Positions 7,651 to 50,919 of a DNA stretch of 64,000 nucleotides are shown in pieces (the stretch's first letter is position 1; every line of letters begins with the position of its first letter). The notes under the pieces are model-generated. The model saw only the letters and a list, made by a program, of their open reading frames with translations. It was not told where the DNA came from and made no database searches. The DNA is from Escherichia coli (lineage in GTDB: Bacteria; Pseudomonadota; Gammaproteobacteria; Enterobacterales; Enterobacteriaceae): NCBI RefSeq assembly GCF_044324875.1, contig NZ_CP172185.1; one strand, written 5' to 3'. Position numbers and translations under genes: made by a program.

Positions 7651-7730
7651 TAAATAAAATTTCAAGTTTCTCCAGGTAATAAACATGGCTGCTATCCCCA
7701 TGGCGGCCTTTTAATTTAAGAGGCATTAAG

Positions 7731-8405
7731 ATGAAAGGATTATTTGCTTTACTCATTTCTTCTATGGTCCTTCCTGCACATGCCGGTATTGTTATCTACG
7801 GGACGCGTATTATTTACCCGGCAGAAAATAAAGAAGTGATGGTGCAGTTGATGAATCAGGGAAACCGTTCTTCGCTGCTGCAGGCGTGGATTGATGATGG
7901 TGATACGTCGTTACCACCAGAAAAAATTCAGGTTCCTTTCATGTTAACGCCACCAGTGGCAAAAATAGGGGCAAATTCCGGGCAGCAAGTAAAAATCAAA
8001 ATTATGCCGAATAAACTGCCCACTAATAAAGAGAGCATTTTTTATCTGAATGTTCTGGATATTCCACCAAATAGTCCAGAGCAAGAGGGCAAGAATGCAC
8101 TGAAATTTGCAATGCAAAACAGAATCAAATTGTTTTACCGGCCTGTGGGTATTGCACCGGTAAATAAAGCGACATTTAAAAAGTTACTGGTAAATCGCAG
8201 TGGCAATGGATTGGTGATAAAAAATGAATCAGCAAATTGGGTGACGATTTCGGATGTCAAAGCTAATAATGTCAAAGTCAATTATGAAACTATTATGATT
8301 GCCCCCTTAGAAAGTCAGAGTATTAATGTCAAAAGTAATAATGCGAATAACTGGCATCTGACCATTATCGATGACCATGGCAACTATATTAGTGACAAAA
8401 TTTAA
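7731..8405 (+). CDS. yehC: Periplasmic fimbrial chaperone (PapD-like)
   Basis: 224-aa ORF with signal peptide; RBS aagagg 8-13 nt upstream; no in-frame upstream ATG before a stop. Confidence 0.88.
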   Translation: MKGLFALLISSMVLPAHAGIVIYGTRIIYPAENKEVMVQLMNQGNRSSLLQAWIDDGDTSLPPEKIQVPFMLTPPVAKIGANSGQQVKIKIMPNKLPTNKESIFYLNVLDIPPNSPEQEGKNALKFAMQNRIKLFYRPVGIAPVNKATFKKLLVNRSGNGLVIKNESANWVTISDVKANNVKVNYETIMIAPLESQSINVKSNNANNWHLTIIDDHGNYISDKI

Positions 8406-10916: not shown

Positions 10917-11951
10917 ATGAAAATTCGCATAATGCTATTTATATTAATGATGATGGTTATGCCAGAGAGCTATGCGGCATGTTATGGCGTGTTGTCAGCA
11001 CAGCATAATTTGGTTGTTCAGGGGGATTTTACGCTAACTCAAAATCAAACAGCAACTCATACATATACTTTTAATGATACTTCTTGCGTCAGTACTAATA
11101 CAATAGCGCAGATAGACCCCTCGGATATTGTGATTGGACTCTATAATGACACCATCAAACTTAAGTTGCATTTTGAATGGGAGAAAAAAGGTAGCATCAC
11201 GCTTTCAAATAACCAAACTAGTTTTACGAGTGGATATAATGTCACTGTGACATCGGCAGCGAGCGATGCCATAGTGAATTTGTCTGGTGGGGGAAGTGGA
11301 TCTCTCATGATTAATAGTGTCGCGACATTAAGCAGTGCTTCATCATCTACTCGTTTGGCTGCTTTTTTACAATTTGCAGGTTGTTTTCTAGGCGGCACCT
11401 CATGGGATACCTGTGTGCAAAACTATAAAAATGCATTATCAAAAAATGCCGGTATCTATTCCTTTAATCTGGCATTGTCATATAACCCGATAACCACAAC
11501 CTGCAAACCGGACGATTTATTAATTACTTTAGAGAGTATTCCCGATTCACAATTACCAGCCACAGGTAACAAAGCAACAATAAATAGTAACAAAGGGGAT
11601 ATTGTTCTGCGTTGTAAAAACTTATTAGGTCAACAAAATCAAACATCACGGAAAATGCAGGTGTATTTATCAAGTTCTGACTTGTTAACCAACAGCAACA
11701 CGATACTGAAAGGTGCGGAAGATAATGGCGTAGGATTTATTCTTGAAAGTAATGGTTCGCCAGTCACACTTTTAAATATCACTAACAGCAGTAAAGGATA
11801 CACAAATTTAAAAGAAATTGCGGCAAAGTCAAAACTTCCAGATACAACGGTTTCAATTCCGATAACAGCCAGTTACTACGTCTACGATACAAACAAAGTT
11901 AAATCTGGCGCACTGGAGGCAACCGCATTAATCAACGTGAAATACGACTAA
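10917..11951 (+). CDS. yehA: Fimbrial adhesin-like tip protein
   Basis: 344-aa ORF with signal peptide, last gene of the chaperone-usher cluster. Confidence 0.85.
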   Translation: MKIRIMLFILMMMVMPESYAACYGVLSAQHNLVVQGDFTLTQNQTATHTYTFNDTSCVSTNTIAQIDPSDIVIGLYNDTIKLKLHFEWEKKGSITLSNNQTSFTSGYNVTVTSAASDAIVNLSGGGSGSLMINSVATLSSASSSTRLAAFLQFAGCFLGGTSWDTCVQNYKNALSKNAGIYSFNLALSYNPITTTCKPDDLLITLESIPDSQLPATGNKATINSNKGDIVLRCKNLLGQQNQTSRKMQVYLSSSDLLTNSNTILKGAEDNGVGFILESNGSPVTLLNITNSSKGYTNLKEIAAKSKLPDTTVSIPITASYYVYDTNKVKSGALEATALINVKYD

Positions 11952-12589: not shown

Positions 12590-13420
12590 TTATCGCATTA
12601 TGCCCATAAAGCCATGCACACCCATATACACACCAACTAAGCCAATCAACAGACTGGAAAAATAGGGGGCGCGTTTAGCGAGAGTGTTAAATCCGCCCCA
12701 GCGTTTTGCAACCTGCTGAACGCTGATTGCTGCGCCAACGCCTACGGTGACCAGCGTTAACGCCAGGCCGATGCTGAAACTGACGACCAGTGTTGCGCCC
12801 AGTGTCAGGGCTTTCAACTGAATGCAAATCAACAGCACGGTAATTGCTGCCGGGCAGGGGATAAGGCCACCGGTTAAGCCAAATAACAAAATTTGCCAGT
12901 TGGTGACCTCTCTACCATCAAAGCGTCGTTTAATGTCATTGGCATGGGCTCGTGCATGAGCATCCTGATACTCCCAGTGTTCGTGATGGTGATGATGTCC
13001 ATGGTCGTGGTGATCTTCGTGATCGTGATGACGGTGATGATGCTCATGATCATGCCCGTGCATATTCTCCAGCCAGTTGCGTTCGCCGCGCCAGGTACGC
13101 CAGAACATCCAGAACGCGGTGCCAATAATGATCACCGCGGAAATCAACTGGAGCCACGGTTCCGCCGACTGCGCAGTAAAGCGTTTGCTGATCACCATCC
13201 CGCCAAAGGCAATTAACCAGACCACTGCGGTATGCGAAATAGTTGCTGCCAGTCCGAGCATCACCGCCTGTTTAATGGTGCCTTTGATGGCGATGATAAA
13301 CGCCGCCATCATCGTTTTTGAGTGCCCTGGTTCCAGGCCATGAAGCGCACCAAGTAAGATGGTGCTGGGGATGAAGAACCAGGCGTTTCCTTGCTGAAGA
13401 AGAGTGGTAAATTCGGTCAT
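12590..13420 (-). CDS. rcnA: Nickel/cobalt efflux pump RcnA
   Basis: 276-aa membrane protein with His-rich loop HDHEHHHRHHDHEDHHDHGHHHHHEH (NicO family). Confidence 0.93.
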   Translation of the reverse strand: MTEFTTLLQQGNAWFFIPSTILLGALHGLEPGHSKTMMAAFIIAIKGTIKQAVMLGLAATISHTAVVWLIAFGGMVISKRFTAQSAEPWLQLISAVIIIGTAFWMFWRTWRGERNWLENMHGHDHEHHHRHHDHEDHHDHGHHHHHEHWEYQDAHARAHANDIKRRFDGREVTNWQILLFGLTGGLIPCPAAITVLLICIQLKALTLGATLVVSFSIGLALTLVTVGVGAAISVQQVAKRWGGFNTLAKRAPYFSSLLIGLVGVYMGVHGFMGIMR

Positions 13421-14035: not shown

Positions 14036-14824
14036 ATGCAAGTCGACCTGCTGAGTTCCGCGCAATCTGCGCACGCGTTACATCTTTTTCACCAACATTC
14101 CCCTCTTGTGCACTGCATGACCAACGATGTGGTGCAAACCTTTACTGCCAATACCTTGCTGGCGCTCGGTGCATCGCCAGCGATGGTTATCGAAACCGAA
14201 GAGGCCAGTCAGTTTGCGGCTATCGCCAGTGCGTTGCTGATTAACGTTGGCACGCTGACGCAGCAACGCGCACAGGCGATGCGTGCCGCTGTTGAACAGG
14301 CAAAACGCTCTCAAACACCCTGGACGCTTGATCCGGTCGCGGTTGGCGCACTCGATTATCGCCGCCGCTTTTGTCATGACCTTTTATCGTTAAAGCCTGC
14401 TGCCATACGCGGTAATGCTTCGGAAATAATGGCATTAGCAGGCATCGCCAATGGTGGTCGTGGTGTGGATACTACTGACGCCGCCGCCAACGCATTGCCC
14501 GCCGCACAAACTCTGGCAAGTGAAACAGGGGCTGTCATCGTGGTCACTGGCGAGGTGGATTATGTTACCGATGGTCGTCGCACCGTTGGCATTCACGGTG
14601 GCGATCCGCTAATGACCAGAGTGGTAGGAACTGGCTGTGCATTATCGGCGGTTGTCGCTGCCTGTTGTGCGCTACCAGGCGATACGCTGGAAAATATCGC
14701 ATCTGCCTGTCACTGGATGAAACAAGCCGGAGAACGCGCAGTCGCCAGTAGCGAGGGGCCAGGCAGTTTTGTTCCACATTTCCTTGATGCGCTCTGGCAA
14801 TTGACGCAGGAGGTGCAGGCGTGA
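14036..14824 (+). CDS. thiM: Hydroxyethylthiazole kinase
   Basis: 262-aa ORF downstream of THI-box; overlaps thiD start by 4 nt. Confidence 0.93.
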
Positions 14825-15621
14825 AACGAATTAACGCTCTGACGATTGCCGGTACTGATCCGAGTGGTGGTGCGGGGATTCAGGCCGATCTTAAAACCTT
14901 CTCGGCACTTGGCGCTTATGGTTGCTCAGTGATTACTGCACTGGTGGCGCAAAATACCCGTGGCGTACAGTCGGTGTATCGCATTGAGCCTGATTTTGTC
15001 GCCGCCCAGCTCGATTCGGTGTTCAGCGATGTGCGAATCGACACCACTAAAATCGGTATGTTGGCGGAAACCGATATTGTTGAAGCGGTGGCAGAACGGT
15101 TGCAACGTTATCAGATCCAAAACGTGGTACTCGACACCGTTATGCTGGCAAAAAGCGGCGACCCACTGCTTTCACCTTCGGCAGTTGCCACGCTACGCAG
15201 TCGATTATTGCCACAGGTTTCATTAATAACGCCAAACTTGCCCGAAGCAGCCGCCTTGCTCGACGCGGCACACGCGCGCACCGAACAGGAAATGCTGGAA
15301 CAAGGGCGATCGCTGTTGGCGATGGGCTGTGGCGCAGTGCTAATGAAAGGTGGTCATCTGGATGATGAGCAAAGCCCGGACTGGCTGTTTACTCGCGAGG
15401 GAGAACAACGATTTACTGCACCGCGCATTATGACCAAAAACACCCACGGCACTGGTTGTACGCTCTCTGCGGCGTTGGCTGCACTACGCCCGCGCCATAC
15501 AAACTGGGCTGACACCGTACAGGAGGCAAAAAGCTGGCTTTCATCGGCGTTAGCCCAGGCCGACACGCTGGAAGTTGGTCACGGTATTGGTCCGGTTCAC
15601 CACTTCCACGCCTGGTGGTGA
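14821..15621 (+). CDS. thiD: Hydroxymethylpyrimidine / phosphomethylpyrimidine kinase
   Basis: 266-aa ORF, PfkB-like ribokinase fold, operon partner of thiM. Confidence 0.93.
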
Positions 15622-15676
15622 GCACCGTACTATAGCTGCTTTGGTTATTGTCAGCCTTTGGCACTGACATTCAGGG

Positions 15677-16504
15677 ATGAAACCAATGCAGCTAAGAATC
15701 ACCAGTCGAAAAAAACTCACCGCTTTATTATGCGCTCTTGGGCTAATTTCCATCGTTGCGATTCATCCGCGTCAGACGGTGAATTTTTTCTACTCGACAG
15801 CAATTCAGATTAAAGACTACATCCACTTCTACGGTTATCGTCCGGTCAAATCTTTTGCTATTCGCATTCCTGCCAGTTACACCATTCATGGTATTGATGT
15901 TTCACGCTGGCAGGAGCGAATCGACTGGCAGCGGGTGGCACAAATGCGCGATAACGGTATTCGCTTGCAGTTTGCTTTTATTAAGGCTACGGAAGGCGAA
16001 AAGCTGGTGGACCCCTATTTTTCGCGTAACTGGCAACTAAGCCGCGAAAATGGCCTGCTGCGCGGGGCGTATCATTATTTTTCCCCGTCGGTATCCGCTT
16101 CAGTTCAGGCGAGATTATTTCTGCAAACGGTGGATTTCTCACAAGGCGATTTCCCTGCCGTGCTGGACGTAGAAGAACGGGGAAAATTATCGGCAAAAGA
16201 ATTACGCAAGCGGGTAAGTCAGTGGCTAAAAATGGTCGAAAAACGCACGGCAAAAAAGCCGATTATTTACTCAGGAGCCGTTTTTTATCACACGAATCTG
16301 GCGGGCTATTTTAATGAATATCCGTGGTGGGTGGCTCACTATTATCAACGTCGTCCGGACAATGACGGCATGGCATGGCGCTTCTGGCAGCATTCCGACC
16401 GTGGACAGGTAGATGGCATTAATGGTCCGGTGGATTTTAATGTGTTTAATGGCTCGGTGGAGGAGTTGCAGGTATTCGTTGATGGGATTAAAGAAACCCC
16501 TTAA
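15677..16504 (+). CDS. yegX: Glycoside hydrolase family 25 (lysozyme-like) protein
   Basis: 275-aa ORF with N-terminal hydrophobic segment; exact start (15677 vs 15686) uncertain. Confidence 0.8.
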   Translation: MKPMQLRITSRKKLTALLCALGLISIVAIHPRQTVNFFYSTAIQIKDYIHFYGYRPVKSFAIRIPASYTIHGIDVSRWQERIDWQRVAQMRDNGIRLQFAFIKATEGEKLVDPYFSRNWQLSRENGLLRGAYHYFSPSVSASVQARLFLQTVDFSQGDFPAVLDVEERGKLSAKELRKRVSQWLKMVEKRTAKKPIIYSGAVFYHTNLAGYFNEYPWWVAHYYQRRPDNDGMAWRFWQHSDRGQVDGINGPVDFNVFNGSVEELQVFVDGIKETP

Positions 16505-16555
16505 ATAAGAAGCAGTGATATACTCCCACCAGACTCCTTGGCAGGAAAAAGACAA

Positions 16556-17302
16556 ATGGAACAAGCGCATACCCAGCTGATTGCCCAACTGAACGAACGT
16601 ATTTTAGCGGCGGATAACACGCCGCTTTATATTAAGTTTGCCGAAACGGTAAAAAATGCCGTGCGCAGCGGGGTGCTGGAGCATGGCAATATTTTGCCCG
16701 GTGAGCGTGATTTAAGTCAGTTAACCGGCGTTTCGCGCATTACGGTGCGCAAGGCGATGCAGGTGCTGGAAGAAGAGGGCGTGGTGACGCGTTCGCGTGG
16801 TTACGGTACGCAGATCAACAACATCTTCGAATACTCGTTGAAAGAAGCGCGAGGTTTTTCTCAGCAGGTGGTATTGCGCGGGAAAAAGCCCGATACACTA
16901 TGGGTTAACAAGCGTGTCGTGAAATGTCCCGAAGAAGTCGCGCAGCAGCTAGCGGTCGAAGCAGGAAGTAATGTCTTTTTGCTTAAGCGTATTCGCTATG
17001 TCGATGAAGAAGCGGTATCAATTGAGGAATCGTGGGTTCCTGCGCATTTAATTCATGATGTTGATGCCATCGGAATTTCTCTTTATGACTACTTCCGCAG
17101 CCAGCACATTTACCCACAACGTACGCGTTCCCGCGTTAGCGCCCGGATGCCGGATGCCGAGTTTCAGTCACATATTCAGTTAGATAGCAAAATACCGGTG
17201 CTGGTGATCAAGCAAGTGGCGCTTGACCAACAGCAACGGCCTATTGAGTACAGCATCAGCCACTGTCGCAGCGATCTATACGTTTTTGTGTGCGAGGAGT
17301 AG
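16556..17302 (+). CDS. yegW: GntR/HutC-family transcriptional regulator
   Basis: ORF 16538..17302; N-terminal GntR HTH (GERDLSQLTGVSRITVRKAMQVLEEEG) plus UTRA-like C-terminus; start taken at MEQAHTQL. Confidence 0.85.
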   Translation: MEQAHTQLIAQLNERILAADNTPLYIKFAETVKNAVRSGVLEHGNILPGERDLSQLTGVSRITVRKAMQVLEEEGVVTRSRGYGTQINNIFEYSLKEARGFSQQVVLRGKKPDTLWVNKRVVKCPEEVAQQLAVEAGSNVFLLKRIRYVDEEAVSIEESWVPAHLIHDVDAIGISLYDYFRSQHIYPQRTRSRVSARMPDAEFQSHIQLDSKIPVLVIKQVALDQQQRPIEYSISHCRSDLYVFVCEE

Positions 17303-18241
17303 TTCCTCGCGCGTTGGCGCACAATCACCGCCCCGATGCCCGACAACCCACGACGCCACTGCATTGCCCAGTAATACAGCATCCGCCAGTGGCAGACCAG
17401 AGGCCAGCCCGGCAAGTACGCCACCTGCATGACTGTCGCCCGCCCCAATGGTGTCTACAACTTGCGTTGGAAATGCCGGAATGCAGCCAGAAGCGTCGTT
17501 GCTGAAATACCATGCGCCCTCTTTATCGAGACGAATGATCAACGGCGCGGCAAATTTCTCCTGCCATTGCTTGCCAAGTGTTGTTATCTCTGCGGATAAA
17601 GCAAAACGTTCGGCGGCAATCTCAGCCTCTTGACGATTGAGTGATACTAAAGGTCGACAGGCCATGATCCGCGCCAGTAATGCGTCCGGGATATCGCCGA
17701 TACGTGGGCCAAAATCGATAAACGGCGTCACGTCTTGCAGCTCTTCCAGCCATTCCACTAACAATTCGCCGCAGAGCGAGGCCAGTTGATAACCGGAAAA
17801 ATAGAGCAGGCTGCCAGGCGCAACGGTTAATCGTGCCAACCATTGGCGATTCCATTGATTTTCCACGCCGCTGAATGACATAAAAGTGCGTTCGCCATCC
17901 GGCTCAACCAGCGCCAGACACCAGCCGTTATCACCTTCGGCGTTATCGATCAGGCTGATTAAGTCCTCTTTTGCCATCCGGTTGCGAATAATCTCCGCCC
18001 AAACCCCCTGACCGAGCGGCAAGGCATTACCCGCTTCGATGCCGAGGCGCTTTAACGCCACGGCAATATTCAGTGCGCAGCCGCCAACGTTAACGCTCTG
18101 CTGTTTCAGTTCGATATCGCACCCACGCCAGGGGAGAGCATAAGCGTCGGCGATCACATCAATGACCGCCGCGCCAATCACCATAACTGGCTGACGCGTG
18201 GTTAATTCAGGCAGCAGCGTGTGTAATCGAGCGCCGCTCAT
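17276..18241 (-). CDS. yegV: PfkB-family carbohydrate/nucleoside kinase
   Basis: 321-aa ORF; PfkB signature DTIGAGDSHAGG; 3' end overlaps yegW 3' end (convergent). Confidence 0.85.
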   Translation of the reverse strand: MSGARLHTLLPELTTRQPVMVIGAAVIDVIADAYALPWRGCDIELKQQSVNVGGCALNIAVALKRLGIEAGNALPLGQGVWAEIIRNRMAKEDLISLIDNAEGDNGWCLALVEPDGERTFMSFSGVENQWNRQWLARLTVAPGSLLYFSGYQLASLCGELLVEWLEELQDVTPFIDFGPRIGDIPDALLARIMACRPLVSLNRQEAEIAAERFALSAEITTLGKQWQEKFAAPLIIRLDKEGAWYFSNDASGCIPAFPTQVVDTIGAGDSHAGGVLAGLASGLPLADAVLLGNAVASWVVGHRGGDCAPTREELLLAHKNV

Positions 18242-19242
18242 ACCGCCTCCCGTTGTTGACGATATTTCGCCAGCGCTGTGGCATAGCGGTTGAAATCAAG
18301 CTGATTTACCGCATCCAGCTCCGCCTTTAACGCAGGATCGATAGCGTTAATGCCATGCAACGCGCCGCAGATTGCCGTCGCCATAGCACCGATGGTGTCT
18401 GTATCGCCGCCAAGGTTAGCGCACAGGACGGCGCAACGGTTCGGGTCGGTTTGTGCCAGTTCAACCAGCGCAATGGCGCACGGAACGGACTCAATAGTGC
18501 TGGTACCTGCGCCAACGACCTGGTAAAGCTGTTCGCTGGCGGATTCAGTGCCGTCGGCATTGCGCACAATTTTCAGCGCAATCTCCAGCCGCGCCGCCAG
18601 TGAGGCGCTGAACGTGGTCGTGCGTTTTTGCTGTGCATGTTGCGCAATTGAAGGCAGTGAATCAACAATCGCTGACCAGCTTTCTCCGTCAATGGCACGA
18701 GAAATCGCCCATGCGATGACTACCGCACCTGCAACTGCCAGATCGGATTTATGGGTCGGGCTCGACGCCAGCGCCACATCATCAATAAAGGAATCAACAT
18801 CACGCGCCGGAAGCAAACAACCTAATGGCGAGACGCGCATCGCTGCGCCGTTGGTCACGCCGTTGTTTTCCAGTTCAGCAACGGGTTTACCGTCGCGAAT
18901 GGCGTTGAGAGCAATCTTCGAGGTCGGACCTAGTACGTTTTTGTTAAAGGCATCGAAACGCAGCGCCCAGTCGAGAATATTACGCCCAATCAGATCCGGA
19001 TCGATCTTGCCTTTACGTTCCAGTAACGCATCCGCCAGACACAGCGCCATCGAGGTATCGTCGGTGAATTCGGCGCGGTTAAAATAACAGGCCGCGTTAT
19101 TCTCCTTTGGTCCAGGCAGAAAATGGTCAATCCAGCCAAAGTGTGCTTTAACGCGGCTGCGTGGCCAAAGCTCGGAGGGCATCCCCATCGCATCCCCTAA
19201 CGCCTGCCCATAAAGAGCACCGAGAATACGTTCTGTTTTCAT
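18238..19242 (-). CDS. yegU: ADP-ribosylglycohydrolase-family protein
   Basis: 334-aa ORF; 4-nt overlap with yegV start and yegT stop (operon yegTUV). Confidence 0.85.
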   Translation of the reverse strand: MKTERILGALYGQALGDAMGMPSELWPRSRVKAHFGWIDHFLPGPKENNAACYFNRAEFTDDTSMALCLADALLERKGKIDPDLIGRNILDWALRFDAFNKNVLGPTSKIALNAIRDGKPVAELENNGVTNGAAMRVSPLGCLLPARDVDSFIDDVALASSPTHKSDLAVAGAVVIAWAISRAIDGESWSAIVDSLPSIAQHAQQKRTTTFSASLAARLEIALKIVRNADGTESASEQLYQVVGAGTSTIESVPCAIALVELAQTDPNRCAVLCANLGGDTDTIGAMATAICGALHGINAIDPALKAELDAVNQLDFNRYATALAKYRQQREAV

Positions 19243-20516
19243 TTAACTTCCCCTTGTGTCAACGCAATATCGCGATCATCGACCTTGATAGCCGTAATTT
19301 CGTTGTCGGATTCGCGGAAAAAAATCATGAACAGCACGGCGATAATGGCAATCATCACCGCGCCAAAAGTCCACATCCCGGACCAGTTGAAAGTCAGTCC
19401 GTTTACCGGTTCCTGATAAGCGAACATCTTTTCCATCATCACACCGCCAAGACGATAGCCGAGCAAACTGCCGAAGCCCTGGCAGCAGAGTGTGATCAGC
19501 CCCTGCGCGGCGGTACGCATATGCACGGGGGCTTTTTTATCGACATAGATGTAAGCGGTAACGTAGTAAAAATCGTAACTTACGCCGTGCAGCAAAATGC
19601 CGAGGAACAGTAACGCGTAGGTGAAATATTCATCCGCACTACCGTAAATAAAGAAGCCATAGCGGATCGCAGCGGTGACCAGACCAAGTAATAATACCTT
19701 TTTGATACCAAAGCGTTTGGTGAAAAACGGCAATGCCAGCATAAAGAAGATTTCAGAGAACTGGCCGAGCGTCATCCAGCCAGTGGCGTTTTTCATACCG
19801 ACTTCGGTCAGATAACCGTTGGCAAAGATGTAATAGAACGCCAGTGGCATCGCAAACAGGAATGAACAGAAGAAAAAGACGAGGAAGTTTTTATCGCGCA
19901 GCAGGATCAGCGCATCCAGGCCGAGCATGACTTTAATGTCCATTTTGCCGGTGCTTTTTGGCGGCGTGTCGGGCAGGAAAAACGCAAACACACCGAGCAG
20001 AGCAGAACTTCAGGCGGTAATCAGCAGCGGGATGTTAGTCGGAGAGATATCGGCATAACCCAGCATTTGCGGCAAAAATCCACATGCAAGACCGGAGGCA
20101 ATCCAGCCGATAGTGCCCATCACACGAATGCGTGGGAAATCACGCTCCACATCCGGCACGTTGGCAAAAGCGATACTGTTAGTCAGCGCAATGGTCGGCA
20201 TATAGGTTAGCGAGTAGGCCAGCAGTAACGGGAAGAACCCGGCAAAAGTGGTCTGTTGCGCAGCGAAATACATCAACGCCGCACCAGCGAACATCAATAC
20301 CGCCAGCACTTTCTGCGCCGAGAAAAAGCGGTCAGTGATGGAGCCAACCAGAATTGGCGACAGGATCGCCGCAATGGCGGTACAGGCATACGACCAGCCA
20401 ATTTCTCCGGCACTAAAACCGCTTTTACTTAACCACAACCACAATGGCACAAACCACGCGCCCCAGATAAACCATTCAACAAACATCATGAACGACAGCT
20501 TTGCTGTTGTTTTCAT
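19239..20516 (-). pseudogene. yegT: Nucleoside:H+ symporter-family transporter yegT, interrupted by an in-frame TGA
   Basis: Two same-frame ORFs (20010..20516, 168 aa; 19239..19991, 250 aa) separated by TGA (plus-strand tca at 20010-20012); translation reads ...PLLITA*SSALLGVFAFFLPDTPPK... Confidence 0.75.
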
Positions 20517-20772
20517 CTTTTAATTCCTTCATGACAGGTAATGTAAGGTACGCGATGACAATACCATTTAATAATACCTTTTAAATACCTTTGCGGTGAA
20601 AACTTGACCGCGGTAACATTTTTTCTGATGAATCGAGCCAACAGAAAACGCTGAAAAAACATCCAAAAGATGGAAAAACTCGCCTGTAACGACCAGGATT
20701 ATGATTGCCCGCAAAAGGCGGGCCAGGACAATCCATAGCCGATATCCAATCGGAATTTACGGGAGCATAGTA

Positions 20773-24978: not shown

Positions 24979-26334
24979 ATGTTTTCAGAAGTCATGCGTT
25001 ATATTCTCGACCTCGGCCCTACGGTGATGCTGCCAATTGTCATCATTATTTTTTCTAAAATATTAGGCATGAAGGCAGGCGATTGCTTTAAAGCGGGTCT
25101 GCATATCGGGATTGGCTTTGTTGGCATTGGCCTTGTGATTGGCTTAATGCTGGATTCCATTGGTCCGGCGGCGAAAGCGATGGCGGAAAATTTCGACCTG
25201 AATCTGCATGTGGTCGATGTCGGTTGGCCGGGCTCTTCACCAATGACCTGGGCGTCGCAAATTGCGCTGGTGGCGATTCCGATTGCGATTCTGGTTAACG
25301 TGGCGATGCTACTGACCCGTATGACGCGGGTGGTAAATGTTGATATCTGGAATATCTGGCATATGACCTTCACCGGCGCATTGCTGCATCTGGCAACCGG
25401 TTCATGGATGATAGGGATGGCGGGTGTGGTAATTCACGCGGCGTTTGTTTATAAGCTCGGCGACTGGTTTGCCCGCGATACCCGAAATTTCTTTGAGCTG
25501 GAAGGCATTGCTATTCCGCACGGTACGTCGGCGTATCTGGGGCCAATTGCGGTGCTGGTGGATGCTATCATCGAGAAAATCCCAGGCGTTAACCGTATTA
25601 AATTTAGCGCCGACGATATTCAGCGCAAATTTGGTCCGTTTGGCGAGCCTGTCACCGTGGGTTTTGTGATGGGGCTGATTATCGGCATCCTCGCGGGTTA
25701 CGATGTCAAAGGTGTATTGCAGCTGGCGGTAAAAACGGCGGCAGTTATGCTGCTGATGCCACGGGTGATTAAACCCATCATGGATGGTTTAACGCCTATC
25801 GCTAAGCAGGCCCGTAGTCGTTTACAGGCGAAGTTCGGCGGTCAGGAGTTCCTGATTGGCCTTGATCCGGCGTTGCTGCTGGGGCATACGGCGGTGGTAT
25901 CGGCAAGCCTGATTTTTATCCCGCTCACCATTTTAATTGCTGTTTGTGTTCCGGGTAATCAGGTACTGCCGTTTGGCGACCTTGCCACCATCGGTTTCTT
26001 TGTGGCGATGGCGGTCGCCGTGCATCGTGGAAATCTGTTCCGCACCTTAATCTCGGGTGTCATCATTATGAGCATCACCCTGTGGATCGCGACGCAAACT
26101 ATTGGTTTGCACACCCAACTGGCGGCTAACGCTGGGGCGTTAAAAGCCGGAGGCATGGTGGCATCAATGGATCAGGGCGGTTCTCCCATTACCTGGTTAC
26201 TGATTCAGGTTTTCTCCCCGCAAAATATTCCCGGTTTCATTATTATCGGTGCCATTTATCTTACCGGTATTTTCATGACCTGGCGTAGAGCGCGCGGCTT
26301 TATTAAACAAGAGAAAGCCGTTCTCGCAGAATAA
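24979..26334 (+). CDS. gatC: PTS galactitol-specific EIIC permease
   Basis: 451-aa polytopic membrane protein. Confidence 0.92.
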   Translation: MFSEVMRYILDLGPTVMLPIVIIIFSKILGMKAGDCFKAGLHIGIGFVGIGLVIGLMLDSIGPAAKAMAENFDLNLHVVDVGWPGSSPMTWASQIALVAIPIAILVNVAMLLTRMTRVVNVDIWNIWHMTFTGALLHLATGSWMIGMAGVVIHAAFVYKLGDWFARDTRNFFELEGIAIPHGTSAYLGPIAVLVDAIIEKIPGVNRIKFSADDIQRKFGPFGEPVTVGFVMGLIIGILAGYDVKGVLQLAVKTAAVMLLMPRVIKPIMDGLTPIAKQARSRLQAKFGGQEFLIGLDPALLLGHTAVVSASLIFIPLTILIAVCVPGNQVLPFGDLATIGFFVAMAVAVHRGNLFRTLISGVIIMSITLWIATQTIGLHTQLAANAGALKAGGMVASMDQGGSPITWLLIQVFSPQNIPGFIIIGAIYLTGIFMTWRRARGFIKQEKAVLAE

Positions 26335-26499: not shown

Positions 26500-26508
26500 C
26501 CGATTTAC
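26500..26508. repeat. IS1 target-site duplication (left copy), ccgatttac
   Basis: Identical 9-mer abuts both IS1 termini. Confidence 0.9.
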
Positions 26509-26523
26509 GGTAATGACTCCAAC

Positions 26524-27027
26524 TTATTGATAGTGTTTTATGTTCAGATAATGCCCGATGACTTTGTCATGCAGCTCCACCGATTTTGAGAACGACAGCG
26601 ACTTCCGTCCCAGCCGTGCCAGGTGCTGCCTCAGATTCAGGTTATGCCGCTCAATTCGCTGCGTATATCGCTTGCTGATTACGTGCAGCTTTCCCTTCAG
26701 GCGGGATTCATACAGTGGCCAGCCATCCGTCATCCATATCACCACGTCAAAGGGTGACAGCAGGCTCATAAGACGCCCCAGCGTCGCCATAGTGCGTTCA
26801 CCGAATACGTGCGCAACAACCGTCTTCCGGAGCCTGTCATACGCGTAAAACAGCCAGCGCTGGCGCGATTTAGCCCCGACATAGCCCCACTGTTCGTCCA
26901 TTTCCGCGCAGACGATGACGTCACTGCCCGGCTGTATGCGCGAGGTTACCGACTGCGGCCTGAGTTTTTTAAGTGACGTAAAATCGTGTTGAGGCCAACG
27001 CCCATAATGCGGGCAGTTGCCCGGCAT
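26524..27027 (-). CDS. insB: IS1 transposase InsB (expressed as InsAB' fusion by -1 frameshift)
   Basis: 167-aa [61 protein letters not shown]... Confidence 0.93.
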
Positions 27028-27221
27028 CCAACGCCATTCATGGCCATATCAATGATTTTCTGGTGCGTACCGGGTTGAGAAGCGGTGTAAGTGAACTGCA
27101 GTTGCCATGTTTTACGGCAGTGAGAGCAGAGATAGCGCTGATGTCCGGCGGTGCTTTTGCCGTTACGCACCACCCCGTCAGTAGCTGAACAGGAGGGACA
27201 GCTGATAGAAACAGAAGCCAC
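26946..27221 (-). CDS. insA: IS1 InsA (transposition inhibitor / N-terminal part of transposase)
   Basis: 91-aa [45 protein letters not shown]... (zinc finger). Confidence 0.93.
26964..26970 (-). promoter_or_regulatory. IS1 programmed -1 ribosomal frameshift motif (A6C)
   Basis: Minus-strand ttaaaaaactc at the insA/insB overlap (plus-strand gtttttt). Confidence 0.7.
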
Positions 27222-27276
27222 TGGAGCACCTCAAAAACACCATCATACACTAAATCAGTAAGTTGGCAGCATCACC

Positions 27277-27285
27277 CCGATTTAC
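27277..27285. repeat. IS1 target-site duplication (right copy), ccgatttac
   Basis: Identical to 26500-26508. Confidence 0.9.
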
Positions 27286-28298: not shown

Positions 28299-29078
28299 AT
28301 GACGATGAATTCATTCGAGCGAAGGAATAAGATCATCCAATTAGTGAATGAACAGGGAACCGTGCTTGTTCAGGATCTGGCGGGAGTATTTGCTGCCTCG
28401 GAAGCGACAATCCGTGCCGATTTGCGCTTTCTCGAACAAAAAGGCGTGGTTACGCGCTTTCATGGCGGTGCGGCGAAAATAATGTCCGGTAATAGTGAAA
28501 CCGAGACCCAGGAAGTTGGGTTTAAAGAGCGATTTCAGCTCGCCAGCGCGCCAAAAAACAGAATAGCGCAGGCGGCAGTCAAAATGATCCACGAAGGGAT
28601 GACCGTTATTCTCGACAGCGGAAGTACGACAATGCTTATCGCCGAAGGATTAATGACCGCCAAAAATATCACGGTGATTACCAACAGTCTCCCGGCAGCA
28701 TTTGCCCTTTCCGAAAATAAAGACATTACTCTGGTCGTCTGTGGTGGGACCGTCCGCCATAAAACACGCTCGATGCATGGTTCCATTGCCGAGCGTTCAT
28801 TGCAGGATATTAATGCCGATTTAATGTTTGTCGGTGCTGATGGTATTGATGCGGTTAATGGTATTACGACCTTTAATGAAGGTTATTCGATTAGCGGGGC
28901 GATGGTTATAGCCGCAAATAAAGTGATTGCCGTTCTCGATTCATCGAAATTTAATCGTCGCGGTTTTAATCAGGTACTGCCAATCGAAAAAATTGACATT
29001 ATTATTACCGATGATGCCGTGTCAGAGGTGGATAAACTGGCATTGCAGAAGACACGGGTGAAATTAATTACGGTGTAG
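28299..29078 (+). CDS. gatR: DeoR-family repressor of the gat operon, apparently intact
   Basis: 259-aa uninterrupted ORF with N-terminal DeoR HTH and C-terminal sugar-binding domain. Confidence 0.85.
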   Translation: MTMNSFERRNKIIQLVNEQGTVLVQDLAGVFAASEATIRADLRFLEQKGVVTRFHGGAAKIMSGNSETETQEVGFKERFQLASAPKNRIAQAAVKMIHEGMTVILDSGSTTMLIAEGLMTAKNITVITNSLPAAFALSENKDITLVVCGGTVRHKTRSMHGSIAERSLQDINADLMFVGADGIDAVNGITTFNEGYSISGAMVIAANKVIAVLDSSKFNRRGFNQVLPIEKIDIIITDDAVSEVDKLALQKTRVKLITV

Positions 29079-32494: not shown

Positions 32495-32695
32495 AATTCT
32501 CTCGTTCTGATGACAGGTCAGATCCGCTTCACCTGATGAAGCGGCCAGGGGAGTGCCCCCACTTTAAGGGCGGGCATTGTAGCGCAATCGTCGGGGTTGG
32601 CTCCAGTGTAATTGTGATGAGCTTTTCGATGCCTGGCGTACAATTGACATCAGAATTGAGTATATTTACGACCGTGAATGCTAAGGAGTTAAAAC

Positions 32696-33301
32696 ATGTG
32701 GATGTTAAAGAAGGGAATCACGCTGGCTCTGTTGGTTCTGTTTTCTCTGCCCGCTACTGCCGGTCTTTCGCTGGAGGAGACTGCTCGTAAGGTGATTATC
32801 GGCTTTCAGCAAAAAGATGCTCAATTAATCAACTCGTTAATTGATAAAAAAACGGGGTTGTATGTTCTCTTCCAGCGTGGCGCTTCGATGGATGTCGAAA
32901 ATTTTAAGTCAATTGATTTTAAAACGCCTGTTCCCGAGTATTTGCTGTGGCCTTCGGCAGGGGAACATATTCCGCGAGATGAAGAGTTTGATAAGAAAAC
33001 TATCCCGGAATTTGACTGTGAACGTGGCTGGAATAAGCACGGATATTTTATTAGCAGCAGCGATACACACCATAAAGTCAGCCGTAATTTGGTCTTCACG
33101 CAGATGTTTGGTTCACCGCGAAACACTATTTCTGATGCGCAGATTGCCGCAGCGCGTCGAATGGAGTACGGGGCCGTGCGTGTGGTCGCTGCGCCAGAAG
33201 GGGGTAGCGATGGACTGGTATTTTATTTAAGTCAACTTTACGGTTATGACCGTGACTGGTATCTGACGGTGGTGGATCAGATTGGTGATTGTGGGGCGTG
33301 A
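32696..33301 (+). CDS. Hypothetical secreted protein (201 aa), unknown function
   Basis: Strong RBS aaggag 7 nt upstream; predicted Sec signal peptide MWMLKKGITLALLVLFSLPATA; two Cys in mature part; not recognised as a K-12 gene. Confidence 0.6.
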   Translation: MWMLKKGITLALLVLFSLPATAGLSLEETARKVIIGFQQKDAQLINSLIDKKTGLYVLFQRGASMDVENFKSIDFKTPVPEYLLWPSAGEHIPRDEEFDKKTIPEFDCERGWNKHGYFISSSDTHHKVSRNLVFTQMFGSPRNTISDAQIAAARRMEYGAVRVVAAPEGGSDGLVFYLSQLYGYDRDWYLTVVDQIGDCGA

Positions 33302-33331
33302 TAAAGATTTATTCGCCCGCAAGCAGTGATG

Positions 33332-34732
33332 CTATTTAAAAGGTATGTAACCCCTTAATCTGTTGTGAAGTTCCGGATTGCGGGTAAAAAGCGCCTGAAG
33401 TTGCTGACGCTGAAGAGCATTCGGTTGAATGCCCGAAAGATTGAAATTGCGTTGCCATATCGCGAGCTGTTTACCTGCAAATTCTTCAGTTAGCTTGTGT
33501 TGCGATTGCAGAAGAAGAATTAAACCGTCCCATTTGTTCAAGTTATGATACAACCGACAATATGCGCAAGCATGTTTAACTGACGGTGCGTTTTCCAGCA
33601 ACTGACGTATTTCCTCGAACGTGAGCGGAACTCGACACCATACACAGATGTTAACCATAAATCGAAGCCCGGAGGCGTCCGGGTTAGCTAGTGTGGTCAG
33701 AATAATCCCTTTGACACCACCATCAGGATTGGCTTTCGCAAGAATATACATAGCGGCTAATCGCAGTGGGAATACATCCTGTGATAATCCCCATTCAGCC
33801 AGTTTTAAAATATTGGCATCATGAATGGAGTCCAGCCCGTATAAAGCTGCCCGGCGCTGTGAGGGAGTATATTCAGTCGAGGTGACAACATGACGCCAGA
33901 ATTGCGCAACATCCATGACGTCATTAAGCATGTTTTTAGCGCGTAGACGGATCAACATATTGTTATCCAGCAGTAATGCGCTGTACAGAGCCGGAGGAAT
34001 TTCTATAGCTCGGTCAGTAAGGCTAAACAACGTTGCTTGTCGAATACGCGGCCAGCGGTCTTTTAACAGACGAGTTAATACCGCTTCGCTTAACGATAAT
34101 TGTTGACGCAGCCAGTGGGTGACTGCCAGCATTCGTAAACCTTCGTCGGGCTGCTTGAGTATTAAAAGCAGCGAAGATTCATCATTAAAGTAGCCATATT
34201 CAATCAGCGTTTGTAATACTGCGCGGGAAAGTTTTTTATCAGGGCAAGTAAGCCAGCACGTTAATTGCGGGCGGTTATTTTCTTCCAGCAAGAAGCTCAG
34301 TATCTCGTTTACAAATGCACGATGATCGTAACGCTGGCATTGGAGAAGGTTACGTATCATGGGAAGATTAACCGCAAATGCCGCTGCATTCTTATCCTTC
34401 TTTAAATGACGTAACGCTATGGTTGCAGCAAGGCGAACCTCTTTTACCCAGTCATTAGCTGCAAGTAATAATTCTTCTATAGCTGCAACATCCTCTTTTT
34501 GTCCCAGACATTGCACGGCCTTTTCTCGTATATATCCATTGTGGTGATGGGTAAGCTGGCAAAGAACCAGAGTATCGTTGAGATCACAATCATGCGCTAT
34601 ATAATTGCCTGGATCGGCTATCATCGCCTGGAGTTGTTGCTGGATAAGAAATAATTCACAGTCAACAGAATTATTCATTTCGACGTTAAACAAAACCCTG
34701 CGTGTAAATAATGTACGCAATCCTTTGAGCAT
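33332..34732 (-). CDS. Hypothetical cytoplasmic protein (466 aa) with HEAT/armadillo-like repeats, unknown function
   Basis: Long ORF with recurring alpha-helical repeat motifs (IREKAVQCLGQ, VRLAATIALRHL, LRMLAVTHWL, QRRAALYGLDSI, LRLAAMYILAKA); aagga RBS; no nucleotide-binding motifs seen. Confidence 0.6.
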   Translation of the reverse strand: MLKGLRTLFTRRVLFNVEMNNSVDCELFLIQQQLQAMIADPGNYIAHDCDLNDTLVLCQLTHHHNGYIREKAVQCLGQKEDVAAIEELLLAANDWVKEVRLAATIALRHLKKDKNAAAFAVNLPMIRNLLQCQRYDHRAFVNEILSFLLEENNRPQLTCWLTCPDKKLSRAVLQTLIEYGYFNDESSLLLILKQPDEGLRMLAVTHWLRQQLSLSEAVLTRLLKDRWPRIRQATLFSLTDRAIEIPPALYSALLLDNNMLIRLRAKNMLNDVMDVAQFWRHVVTSTEYTPSQRRAALYGLDSIHDANILKLAEWGLSQDVFPLRLAAMYILAKANPDGGVKGIILTTLANPDASGLRFMVNICVWCRVPLTFEEIRQLLENAPSVKHACAYCRLYHNLNKWDGLILLLQSQHKLTEEFAGKQLAIWQRNFNLSGIQPNALQRQQLQALFTRNPELHNRLRGYIPFK

Positions 34733-34854
34733 AATTTTCCTTATCAGTTATGAGGAGAAAACTCATTTCATGATTAATAATTTCTTGAGGGATAGTAACT
34801 CTGTGGTGAGAGAAAATAAAGCCGGACGCCAACAACCCACGCCCGGCATCGTAA

Positions 34855-46579: not shown

Positions 46580-46720
46580 AACGGGAAAGCCCCTCCCGAG
46601 GAAGGGGCCTTAAATAAGGAAAGGGTCATGATGAAGTGGATCATCATCGTGGTGCTCTTAGTGATTAGCTACCCAGCATACTAAGACTACCAGGGCGGGG
46701 GAAACCCCGCTCTACCCTCA
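46580..46720 (-). ncRNA. Putative Sib antisense sRNA, copy 1 (antitoxin of the overlapping ibs)
   Basis: Minus-strand promoter ttgaca-17-tacttt (weaker -10 than copies 2 and 3); terminator hairpin gcccct...aggggc then tttcccgttt; boundaries approximate. Confidence 0.45.
46628..46684 (+). CDS. Ibs-family small hydrophobic toxin, variant MMKWIIIVVLLVISYPAY (copy 1)
   Basis: 18-codon ORF at the same position in the repeat unit as the other two ibs genes. Confidence 0.6.
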   Translation: MMKWIIIVVLLVISYPAY

Positions 46721-46907
46721 CTCCTGAAAGTATGCCTTCACGATAAGATTGTCAATCTGCAGGCTTTGCAGTCTGCGATCCTGCCAGCAAATATTCTTTG
46801 CGAGACGTTACGCAATAATCACACTGGAAACTATTTTATCCGCAAGTCAGCGATAGACTGCATACAGGGCGAAAGGAGGTAAGTCGACGATTTCAGCGGG
46901 ACGCTGA

Positions 46908-47048
46908 AACGGGAAAGCCCCTCCCGAGGAAGGGGCCTTAAATAAGGAAAGGGTCATGATGAAGCTACTCATCATCGTGGTGCTCTTAGTCATAAGCTTC
47001 CCCGCTTACTAAGACTACCAGGGCGGGGGAAACCCCGCTCTACCCTCA
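46908..47048 (-). ncRNA. sibB: Putative Sib antisense sRNA, copy 2 (SibB-like)
   Basis: Minus-strand promoter ttgaca-17-taattt (-35 at 47078-47083, -10 at 47055-47060); terminator hairpin 46917-46936; boundaries approximate. Confidence 0.55.
46956..47012 (+). CDS. ibsB: Ibs-family small toxin MMKLLIIVVLLVISFPAY (IbsB-like)
   Basis: 18-codon ORF; matches my recollection of IbsB. Confidence 0.65.
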   Translation: MMKLLIIVVLLVISFPAY

Positions 47049-47237
47049 CTCCTGAAATTATGCCTTCACGATAAGATTGTCAATCCGCAGGCTTTGCAGT
47101 CTGCGATCCTGCCAGCAAATATTCTTTGCGAGTCGTTACGCAATAATCACAGAGGAAACTATTTTGTTCACGCGTTAGCGATAGACTGCATTCAGGGCGA
47201 AAGGAGGTAAGCCGACGATTTCAGCGGGACGCTGAAA

Positions 47238-47383
47238 CGGGAAACCCTCTCCCGGAGAAGAGGGCTTTTAATAAGGAAAGGGTTATGATGAAGCACGTCA
47301 TCATACTGGTGATACTCTTAGTGATTAGCTTCCAGGCTTACTAAGAACACCAGGGGGAGGGGGAAACCTCTCCCTAACCCTCA
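47238..47383 (-). ncRNA. sibA: Putative Sib antisense sRNA, copy 3 (SibA-like)
   Basis: Minus-strand promoter ttgaca-17-taattt (-35 at 47413-47418, -10 at 47390-47395); terminator hairpin ccctct...agaggg then tttcccgttt; boundaries approximate. Confidence 0.55.
47285..47344 (+). CDS. ibsA: Ibs-family small toxin MMKHVIILVILLVISFQAY (IbsA-like)
   Basis: 19-codon ORF. Confidence 0.65.
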   Translation: MMKHVIILVILLVISFQAY

Positions 47384-47564
47384 CTCCTGAAATTATGTCA
47401 CTCCGCCCTTAGTGTCAATCGACGGCTCTCCGTTCTTGCGAGGCGAATAGCAAAATTTTCTGCGCCGCCGGGCCTAATTCTGAAAGTTGCTTTGCCTGCT
47501 CATATTTCATTGTTGCAGTCGGTATGATACCGGACCTCAATAATTCTCTAAGAAAGGATTTCTT

Positions 47565-48224
47565 ATGAGCGAACAAATCACGTTTGCCACCAGCGATTTT
47601 GCCAGTAACCCGGAACCACGTTGCCCCTGCATTTTGCTGCTGGATGTTTCTGGTTCTATGAACGGTAGACCCATTAATGAACTTAACGCCGGATTGGTTA
47701 CCTTTCGCGATGAGCTGCTTGCCGATTCGCTGGCCTTAAAAAGAGTGGAACTCGGTATTGTGACGTTCGGCCCGGTGCATGTGGAACAACCCTTTACCAG
47801 CGCCGCTAATTTTTTCCCGCCCATCCTGTTTGCCCAGGGCGATACACCAATGGGGGCCGCCATTACCAAAGCCCTGGATATGGTTGAGGAGCGCAAACGT
47901 GAGTATCGCGCCAATGGTATTTCCTATTATCGCCCGTGGATTTTCCTGATCACCGATGGCGCTCCAACCGATGAGTGGCAGGCTGCCGCCAACAAAGTGT
48001 TTCAGGGGGAAGAAGATAAGAAGTTTGCCTTCTTTTCCATCGGTGTTCAGGGGGCGGATATGAAGACTTTGGCACAAATCAGCGTTCGTCAGCCTTTGCC
48101 ACTGCAGGGATTACAATTCCGTGAACTGTTTAGCTGGTTATCCAGTTCGCTGCGTTCGGTTTCCCGCTCCACGCCGGGAACGGAAGTTGTGCTGGAAGCG
48201 CCAAAAGGCTGGACGTCAGTGTGA
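47565..48224 (+). CDS. yegL: von Willebrand factor A (TerY-like) domain protein
   Basis: 219-aa ORF; MIDAS-type motif [11 protein letters not shown] near N-terminus; stop overlaps yegK start. Confidence 0.85.
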
Positions 48225-48982
48225 GCTGGCGTCTGGTCTATGCATCAACCGTTGGAACGTCGCACATCAGCGCGGACTTGCCTTGCCAGGATGCCTGCCA
48301 GATGCAGGTTGCCTGGTTAAATGACCAGCAGCCATTATTGTCGGTATTTGTCGCTGATGGCGCAGGCAGCGTCTCGCAGGGTGGCGAAGGTGCGATGCTC
48401 GCCGTCAATGAAGCGATGGCTTATATGTCGCAAAAAGTGCAGGGCGGGGAATTGGGGCTTAATGATGTCCTCGCAACGGACATTGTGCTGACCATTCGTC
48501 AGCGACTTTTTGCCGAGGCGGAAGCCAAAGAATTAGCGGTTCGCGATTTTGCCTGCACGTTTTTGGGATTGATTTCATCAGCTAATGGCACCTTGATTAT
48601 GCAGATTGGCGATGGCGGCGTGGTGGTAGATTTGGGTCACGGTCTGCAATTGCCTCTCACGCCGATGGTGGGTGAATATGCCAACATGACGCACTTCATT
48701 ACCGATGACGATGCTGTTTCCAGACTGGAAACTTACACCAGCACTGGGCGTGCGCATAAAGTTGCAGCATTTACGGATGGTATCCAGCGACTGGCGTTAA
48801 ATATGCTGGATAATTCTCCTCATGTGCCTTTCTTTACCCCGTTTTTCAATGGACTGGCGTCAGCAACGCAGGAACAACTCGATTTATTACCTGAATTGTT
48901 AAAGCAGTTTTTGTCCAGCCCGGCGGTAAACGAGCGTACGGATGATGATAAAACGTTGGCACTGGCGCTGTGGTTACCATGA
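48221..48982 (+). CDS. yegK: PP2C-family Ser/Thr protein phosphatase
   Basis: 253-aa ORF from GTG (GTGA overlap with yegL stop); acidic metal-binding residues typical of PP2C (VADGAG...DGGVV...FTDG). Confidence 0.8.
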
Positions 48983-50919
48983 AACCCACTTTATATACTG
49001 CTACTGGTGAGTGCGTTACGCCAGGCCGTGAACTGGGAAAAGGTGGCGAAGGCGCGGTTTATGATATCGAGGAGTTTGTCGATAGCGTCGCCAAGATTTA
49101 TCACACGCCGCCACCCGCCTTAAAACAGGACAAACTTGCCTTTATGGCTGCGACAGCTGACGCGCAATTGTTGAATTATGTCGCCTGGCCGCAGGCAACG
49201 CTTCACGGTGGACGAGGCGGAAAGGTTATCGGTTTTATGATGCCAAAAGTTTCTGGTAAAGAACCGATTCATATGATCTATAGCCCGGCACATCGTCGCC
49301 AACGTTACCCTCATTGTGCGTGGGATTTTCTACTCTATGTTGCGCGCAATATTGCTTCATCTTTTGCTACGGTTCACGAGCACGGGCATGTCGTGGGTGA
49401 CGTAAACCAGAACAGCTTTATGGTAGGCCGTGACAGCAAAGTGGTGTTGATTGATAGCGACTCCTTTCAGATTAACGCCAATGGCACGCTGCATTTATGC
49501 GAAGTCGGCGTGTCGCATTTTACGCCGCCAGAGCTGCAAACCTTGCCATCATTTGTCGGCTTTGAACGCACCGCGAATCACGATAATTTTGGCCTTGCGT
49601 TGCTGATTTTTCACGTCTTGTTTGGTGGGCGGCATCCTTATTCCGGTGTAACGCTTGTCTCTGATGCGGGTAATGCACTGGAGACGGATATTGCCCATTT
49701 CCGTTATGCCTACGCGTCAGATAATCAGCGACGTGGTTTAAAACCGCCGCCACGATCTATTCCGCTGTCGATGTTACCGGGCGATGTTGAAACCATGTTT
49801 CAGCAGGCATTCACGGAAAGTGGCGTGGCAACCGGGCGTCCGACGGCAAAAGCGTGGGTTGCGGCACTTGATTTACTACGCCAACAGTTAAAGAAATGTA
49901 CCGTTTCGGCAATGCATGTTTACCCCGGTCATTTGACTGACTGCCCGTGGTGTGCGCTGGATAATCAAGGCGTTATCTATTTTATTGATCTCGGCGAAGA
50001 GGTCATTACCACCAGCGGTGATTTTGTGCTGGCGAAAGTCTGGGCGATGGTGATGGCGTCAGTAGCACCGCCAGCATTGCAACTGCCATTACCCGATCAT
50101 TTCCAACTGACTGGCAGGCCGCTTCCTTTAGGCCTGTTACGGCGCGAATACATCATTCTGATTGAGATCGCACTGTCAGCGTTATCGCTGTTGCTTTGCG
50201 GCCTTCAGGCAGAACCGCGTTATATTATTTTGGTTCCTGTGCTGGCGGCTATCTGGATTATTGGCAGCCTGACAAGCAAAGCGTACAAAGCAGAAATCCA
50301 GCAACGCCGTGAGGCGTTTAATCGCGCGAAAATGGACTATGACCATTTAGTCAGCCAGATCCAACGGTTGGGCGGGCTGGAAGGTTTTATCGCCAAACGG
50401 ACGATGCTCGAAAAAATGAAGGACGAAATTCTTGGGTTACCGGAAGAAGAAAAGCGCGATCTGGCAGCACTTCAGGACACCGCAAGGGAACGGCAGAAGC
50501 AGAAGTTTCTGGAGGGATTTTTTATTGATGTTGCCTCTATTCCCGGCGTTGGCCCTGCGCGTAAAGCGGCGTTACGGTCCTTTGGTATTGAAACGGCGGC
50601 AGACGTTACCCGACGGAGCGTTAAGCAAGTTAGAGGTTTTGGTGATCATCTGACCCAGGCGGTTATCGACTGGAAAGCGAGTTGCGAACGCCGTTTTGTT
50701 TTCAGGCCGAACGAAGCGGTAACGCCTGCAGACAGACAAGCGGTAATGGCAAAAATGGCCGCCAAACGACATCGGCTGGAATCGACGTTGACTGTCGGTG
50801 CGACAGAGTTGCAGCGATTCCGCCTTCATGCTCCAGCACGGACCATGCCGTTGATGGAACCGTTACGTCAGGCGGCAGAAAAACTGGCTCAGGCGCAGGC
50901 AGATTTAAGCCGCTGCTGA
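48970..50919 (+). CDS. yegI: Membrane-anchored Ser/Thr protein kinase-like protein with C-terminal helix-hairpin-helix region
   Basis: 649-aa ORF overlapping yegK by 13 nt; N-terminal kinase-like region (GKGGEGAVYDI, HGHVVGDVNQNSFMV, LIDSDSFQ), two hydrophobic segments, C-terminal IPGVGPARKAALRSFGIETAADV (HhH-like). Confidence 0.8.
   Translation: MVTMKPTLYTATGECVTPGRELGKGGEGAVYDIEEFVDSVAKIYHTPPPALKQDKLAFMAATADAQLLNYVAWPQATLHGGRGGKVIGFMMPKVSGKEPIHMIYSPAHRRQRYPHCAWDFLLYVARNIASSFATVHEHGHVVGDVNQNSFMVGRDSKVVLIDSDSFQINANGTLHLCEVGVSHFTPPELQTLPSFVGFERTANHDNFGLALLIFHVLFGGRHPYSGVTLVSDAGNALETDIAHFRYAYASDNQRRGLKPPPRSIPLSMLPGDVETMFQQAFTESGVATGRPTAKAWVAALDLLRQQLKKCTVSAMHVYPGHLTDCPWCALDNQGVIYFIDLGEEVITTSGDFVLAKVWAMVMASVAPPALQLPLPDHFQLTGRPLPLGLLRREYIILIEIALSALSLLLCGLQAEPRYIILVPVLAAIWIIGSLTSKAYKAEIQQRREAFNRAKMDYDHLVSQIQRLGGLEGFIAKRTMLEKMKDEILGLPEEEKRDLAALQDTARERQKQKFLEGFFIDVASIPGVGPARKAALRSFGIETAADVTRRSVKQVRGFGDHLTQAVIDWKASCERRFVFRPNEAVTPADRQAVMAKMAAKRHRLESTLTVGATELQRFRLHAPARTMPLMEPLRQAAEKLAQAQADLSRC

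Follow-up and report, generated by a model that had tools for sequence, protein, structure and literature searches.

The yegT gene in a 64,000-nt stretch of an Escherichia coli chromosome, referred to here as the window, very probably carries a genuine, inherited G>T nonsense allele, Gly169*, by which YegT has lost its function and yegT has become a young pseudogene, while the downstream genes yegU and yegV are intact. The course of events may be pictured as follows. A G>T change converting GGA (Gly169) into TGA would have been inherited vertically from a recent ancestor of the strain, and translation of YegT would now break off in the sixth transmembrane segment. Left with five complete helices and lacking the C-terminal six-helix domain and its proton-coupling residues, the protein would be dead as a transporter. 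Expression of the intact yegU and yegV may drop, because about 770 nt of mRNA would be left untranslated and termination-reinitiation coupling would be lost. The allele very probably represents a recent loss of function, confined to one lineage, in a dispensable transporter, and is an ordinary, standard nonsense pseudogene of a known gene.

A premature stop in yegT and its ancestral codon

The yegT frame runs on the minus strand from 20516 to 19239, and translation of the whole gene finds only one internal stop in its 1,278 nt, a TGA at codon 169 (20012..20010, minus strand), in addition to a normal terminal stop at 19239. The minus-strand letters around it are ...CTG CTG ATT ACC GCC TGA AGT TCT GCT CTG CTC GGT GTG.... 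In the list of open reading frames, the part before the stop appears as a 168-aa frame (20010..20516) ending in ...NIPLLITA, and its codons 1-168 (20013..20516, minus strand) encode five hydrophobic segments and the first third of a sixth, as judged from the reading frame, PDB 8ZOJ and hydropathy. Past the TGA, the frame continues as SSALLGVFAFFLPD... (SSALLGVFAFF...) to the native stop; this remnant, codons 170-425 plus the stop (19239..20009, minus strand), encodes what is left of TM6 plus the entire C-domain and has no further lesion by translation and comparison with K-12. A preliminary description of this DNA had reported a yegT frame unbroken except for one TGA, and its coordinates, strand and flanking peptides all proved right. 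It is to be noted that a lone stop codon is no statistical anomaly. The relevant question is, then, is it real and inherited?

There is little doubt about the identity of the locus. If codon 169 is read as Gly, a phmmer search against the PDB returns 8ZOJ, 'Putative nucleoside transporter YegT', with E = 1.4e-281 and residues 1-425 aligned, whereas NupG reaches 9e-51 in the same search. The K-12 protein (b2098, UniProt P76417; PDB 8ZOJ) belongs with NupG and XapB to the NHS family of MFS transporters (TC 2.A.1.10). The gene order and orientation of the window, fbaB, then yegT-yegU-yegV, then yegW, are those of K-12 and other E. coli, and full-length identity together with this conserved context makes the gene a yegT orthologue, but as a pseudogene. 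The DNA is 97.7% identical to K-12 yegT, and the protein is the same save L80A, I151M and the stop; likewise, residues 1-168 are those of YegT in 8ZOJ except for A80 in place of L and M151 in place of I. Among the 29 nucleotide differences from K-12, these two are the only missense changes besides the stop, and those downstream of the stop are all synonymous. Thus, yegT was under purifying selection until recently.

Comparison with K-12 and relatives indicates what stood at codon 169 before (20010..20012, minus strand). The preliminary description believed that K-12 has a Gly codon there, and alignment with K-12 MG1655 yegT confirms this, the codon being GGA. It is also GGA in XJ6.1 and JNEC-KY178, the best-matching complete genomes, which differ from the window yegT at only 2 of 1,278 positions, namely 20276 (a synonymous C/T) and 20012 (G/T). 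A sister isolate (GCA_014589615.1), with 5 differences from the window in 7,005 positions, again has GGA, together with an intact 425-aa YegT and a YegU protein the same as that of the window. The ancestral codon is therefore a sense codon for Gly in all the close relatives checked (XJ6.1, JNEC-KY178, K-12 and the sister isolate), and a single G>T transversion suffices to turn GGA into TGA. As for position 20276, which lies 264 nt upstream of the stop, the window has T (TTG, Leu) where C (CTG) is found in XJ6.1, JNEC-KY178, the sister isolate and the three other carriers of the TGA described below; this synonymous SNP is private to the isolate.

How widely is the TGA distributed? When 81 nt with the stop at their centre were searched against 5,426 RefSeq complete E. 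coli genomes, no exact copy turned up; the best match, 98.8% with one mismatch, occurs in 4,791 of them. An exact-sequence look-up of the 168-aa product, on the other hand, hits 136 public contigs (146 data blocks), so that the allele is present in at least 136 contigs, which come from NCBI and from SRA-derived assemblies. Three such loci were fetched, from SRA run SRR31139369, GCA_002467655.1 and GCA_044083135.1, and all have the identical GCC TGA AGT on DNA that mismatches the window at 3 of 14,499, 1 of 12,607 and 1 of 7,005 nt, respectively, that is, 99.98-100% identity over 7-14.5 kb. Intact YegT of the same amino-acid haplotype is found in at least 1,000 contigs. Since the identical codon recurs in many independent assemblies on an almost identical haplotype, the TGA is a true mutation, inherited and of single origin on this haplotype, and it marks a sub-lineage, one without a representative among the 5,426 complete genomes. 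The truncation at residue 168 that the preliminary description had offered as one of two readings is thus borne out by the GGA of K-12 and the nearest relatives and by the recurrence of TGA in public contigs, and the other, a base-call error, gives way before the same codon in independent assemblies.

That second reading, in which the isolate would truly have GGA and an intact yegT and the stop would come from base calling or assembly, is accordingly very improbable. Nothing positive speaks for it beyond its having been raised at the outset as a prior possibility, although among the other truncated yegT alleles on public record there are some that look erroneous. The most frequent of these (P0012, 202 aa) results from the loss of 1 nt in an A5 run at codons 187-189, and in two 5.2-Mb assemblies that carry it (GCA_053291545.1 and GCA_053291665.1) fbaB, gatY, yegU and yegV are also fragmented; the frameshift there is therefore most likely a homopolymer sequencing error. 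The product of these alleles, like that of the TGA allele, is an N-terminal piece of YegT that falls into the same 90% protein cluster. They are homopolymer frameshifts, however, whereas the TGA is a substitution on a clean background: the neighbouring genes are all intact, and at least 136 independent contigs share the codon on nearly the same haplotype. Because this commonest other form is at least partly an artefact, as judged from the two long assemblies, repeated independent truncation of yegT in E. coli is not established as evidence for selection.

The Gly169* SNP can serve as a clean marker for a sub-lineage absent from RefSeq complete E. coli genomes. The surroundings of yegT bear on the same lineage. 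While yegT itself is 99.9% identical to that of XJ6.1 and JNEC-KY178, the nearest of the 5,426 complete genomes reaches at most 98.8% identity over 15600-19242 (yegU-yegX) and 97.9% over 30000-54000 (30-54 kb). The locus is a recombination mosaic from a lineage unrepresented in the collection. One of the TGA carriers, GCA_002467655.1, diverges from the window just past thiM and the TPP riboswitch (its positions 14616-16461, corresponding to the window below 13902) and has small HTH-domain genes in place of rcnR/rcnA, which suggests insertion or replacement by a mobile element.

Probable loss of the transporter and possible escape from it

The known structure of YegT is a canonical MFS fold, with TM1-6 forming the N-domain and TM7-12 the C-domain, and its proton-coupling site consists of Asp315, in a GXXXD motif of TM10, and Glu255 in TM8 (PMC11979927). 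By a hydropathy scan, residue 169 falls inside the sixth hydrophobic segment (160-186), and the charged central loop, DTPPKSTGKMD, comes only after it. Instead of a complete 12-TM frame with both MFS domains, the window thus has a frame interrupted by an internal stop at codon 169, whose product has five complete helices and about one third of the sixth, with the C-domain absent. Unlike K-12 YegT, it ends at residue 168 of 425, and the C-domain with GXXXD/Asp315 is untranslated. For an MFS protein, the loss of TM7-12 together with Glu255 and Asp315 makes it a safe inference that the truncated YegT would be non-functional as a transporter. With the cloned YegT, uptake of uridine, cytidine, xanthosine and gemcitabine was not detected (PMC11241209).

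Could the cell nevertheless obtain a working transporter from this gene? One way would be programmed recoding, in which the UGA is read efficiently as selenocysteine or by high read-through and full-length YegT is made. UGA is the leakiest stop in E. coli, the next base here is A, and the frame past the stop remains open. The open frame is, however, accounted for by the youth of the allele, given that carriers differ by 0-3 SNPs per 7-14 kb. With the TGA in 0 of the 5,426 complete genomes, no co-evolved recoding signal is possible, and the immediate sister as well as every other genome checked has GGA (Gly). Neither Sec nor Cys was found at the homologous position, where relatives have Gly; at the stop site, Rfam models all stay below their gathering scores, and there is no tRNA gene in the 64,000-nt window. 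The RNA after the UGA is predicted to fold into a generic hairpin. Given the Gly of the relatives and the missing Rfam match, selenocysteine insertion and other recoding were rejected, and such a reading can hardly be credited. Low-level read-through of UGA by tRNA-Trp is normal in E. coli. Even so, read-through would place a bulky Trp for Gly inside a transmembrane helix, and basal read-through may leave the cell with no more than traces of full-length Gly169Trp protein.

The other way would be a split but functional gene, whose N- and C-terminal halves are translated apart and assemble into a two-piece MFS transporter. Split MFS permeases can complement each other, as is known from engineered split LacY, and by analogy with this precedent the two parts of yegT might do the same; gene callers indeed predict a 229-aa C-terminal frame from ATG197. 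Yet the break lies inside the sixth hydrophobic segment (160-186) and not in the central loop, so that a C-terminal fragment beginning at codon 176, 192 or 197 leaves TM6 incomplete in both pieces. In addition, the restart codons after the stop, GTG176, ATG192 and ATG197, have negligible Shine-Dalgarno (SD) pairing. Their pairing with the anti-SD sequence is -0.5 to -3.0 kcal/mol, and that of the first seven in-frame starts past the stop (codons 176-259) is -3 kcal/mol or weaker, as against -5.7 for the native start of yegT and -7.6 kcal/mol for that of yegU; no SD-backed in-frame restart codon was found near the stop. Topology and the absent SD together led us to discard the two-piece transporter, whose chance of being real is minimal. 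NCBI annotation has nevertheless listed the split gene as two products, with SRB00689.1 being the 168-aa product and its neighbour SRB00690.1 the exact 229-aa C-terminal piece. For the present genome, the proper entry for yegT is a single pseudogene (Gly169*), not the two MFS proteins of SRB00689.1 and SRB00690.1.

The yegTUV operon and the significance of the loss

Downstream of yegT, yegU (18238..19242, minus strand) encodes an intact protein of the ADP-ribosylglycohydrolase family, and yegV (17276..18241, minus strand), the last gene of the operon, an intact PfkB-family sugar kinase, both by reading frame and translation. The repressor gene yegW/ggaR (16556..17302, plus strand), coding for a GntR-family protein, is also intact by translation, with its function as the repressor of yegTUV taken from PMC10819704. 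A single 3.3-kb mRNA covers yegTUV in K-12, and GgaR (YegW), whose effector is ADP-glucose, represses the operon about 30-fold (PMC10819704). The promoter and the primary GgaR operator are located in the K-12 fbaB-yegT intergenic region (PMC10819704), and would by synteny lie in the corresponding divergent region of the window, 20517..20772. A second, weak GgaR operator lies within nt 571-869 of yegT (PMC10819704).

Does the stop affect the rest of the operon? The ATG of yegU overlaps the native yegT stop (ATGA), and termination-reinitiation coupling between the two genes would therefore be lost. About 770 nt of the mRNA would now carry no ribosomes, and in a stretch around nt 586-700 C modestly exceeds G, which makes Rho-dependent polarity plausible. 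Hence polarity on yegU and yegV is possible, as far as can be judged from the sequence, although yegU can rely on a strong SD that belongs to it alone, ACAAGGGGA, at -7.6 kcal/mol. The phenotype is probably small, as wild-type K-12 hardly expresses the operon. No newer literature on the function of YegU or YegV was found.

Is the loss of YegT adaptive rather than neutral? This is unlikely, but it is conceivable by analogy, considering that the sub-lineage in which the allele has become fixed has been sampled more than 130 times and that yegT truncations also occur in Salmonella Typhi. Cells without YegT might no longer take up a harmful nucleoside-like compound, or the loss might re-tune the circuit of yegTUV and ADP-glucose/glycogen that GgaR controls; in a variant of this adaptive reading, the stop could act mainly via polarity, lowering YegU and YegV. 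In Salmonella Typhi, yegT is listed among MFS genes accumulating truncation mutations (PMC9241588). The resemblance to the present allele is that a non-essential transporter gene has acquired a single premature stop which became fixed in a clone, but the Typhi truncations belong to another species and arose as an independent event at another position. Moreover, the window, unlike Typhi, has no sign of genome-wide decay, with 2 of 44 K-12 orthologues disrupted, yegT by the nonsense mutation and gatD by an IS1 insertion. Genome decay of the Shigella type was considered and rejected, in view of these two disruptions, a single IS, and exact-protein matches that are all E. coli. Indeed, the exact-match proteins are all labelled E. 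coli, in about 190-300 contigs including a 5.75-Mb chromosome.

Beyond annotation, the finding matters little. Still, the GGA sister and the TGA carriers form a natural pair, which could provide an isogenic-like contrast for studying what YegT transports or how yegTUV contributes to glycogen/ADP-glucose metabolism.

Other features of the window

The window opens with a DUF4132 gene and metG and closes with wza/wzb; it is inverted relative to K-12 and about 97% identical to it throughout. A 768-bp IS1 with terminal inverted repeats (26509-27276) interrupts gatD, the gene for galactitol-1-phosphate dehydrogenase, after nt 127, and is flanked by the 9-bp target duplication CCGATTTAC at 26500-26508 and 27277-27285. 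As it is absent from two near-identical TGA carriers (SRR31139369 and GCA_002467655.1), the insertion is a strain-level event. The only match in a look-up of the gatD::IS1 C-terminal fragment is a 1.5-kb metagenome contig. Both gatC and gatR are intact (24979-26334 and 28299-29078), whereas K-12 gatC is a frameshifted pseudogene and K-12 gatR is split by IS3E. To judge from these genes, the gat operon would have normal regulation but be broken at gatD by the IS1, which should make the isolate galactitol-negative.

Several other segments differ from K-12. Between mdtA and yegL, three tandem SIB RNA (Sib/Ibs toxin-antitoxin) units are found at 46613-47418, in comparison with two in K-12, sibA/ibsA and sibB/ibsB. 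A 2.36-kb segment between trhP (yegQ) and yegP (32495-34854) is absent from K-12, which has a 147-bp gap there; it encodes a 201-aa hypothetical protein (32696-33301, plus strand) and a 466-aa HEAT-repeat protein (33332-34732, minus strand), both present in a minority of E. coli and in E. fergusonii. At 48221-50919, pphC and yegI abut or overlap, K-12 yegJ is unmatched in the window, and yegI has no alignment to K-12 over its first 51 nt. The sequences of yehA (10917-11951), encoding a fimbrial adhesin, and thiM (14036-14824) are only 85.9% and 91.4% identical to K-12, respectively, against a window average of about 97%, and such divergence suggests imported or diversifying alleles.

One apparent lesion was dismissed. 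At 7685-7731, an extra C (CCCC vs CCC) in the K-12-annotated N-terminus of yehC frameshifts the K-12 start. The extra base falls in the K-12 N-terminal extension, upstream of an ATG at 7731 that has a good SD (AAGAGG) and is followed by a signal-peptide-like sequence; judging from this, yehC is probably intact and the K-12 start over-extended. Finally, rcnA (12590-13420) is 831 nt long, 6 nt longer than the 825 nt of K-12, and the difference is in frame.
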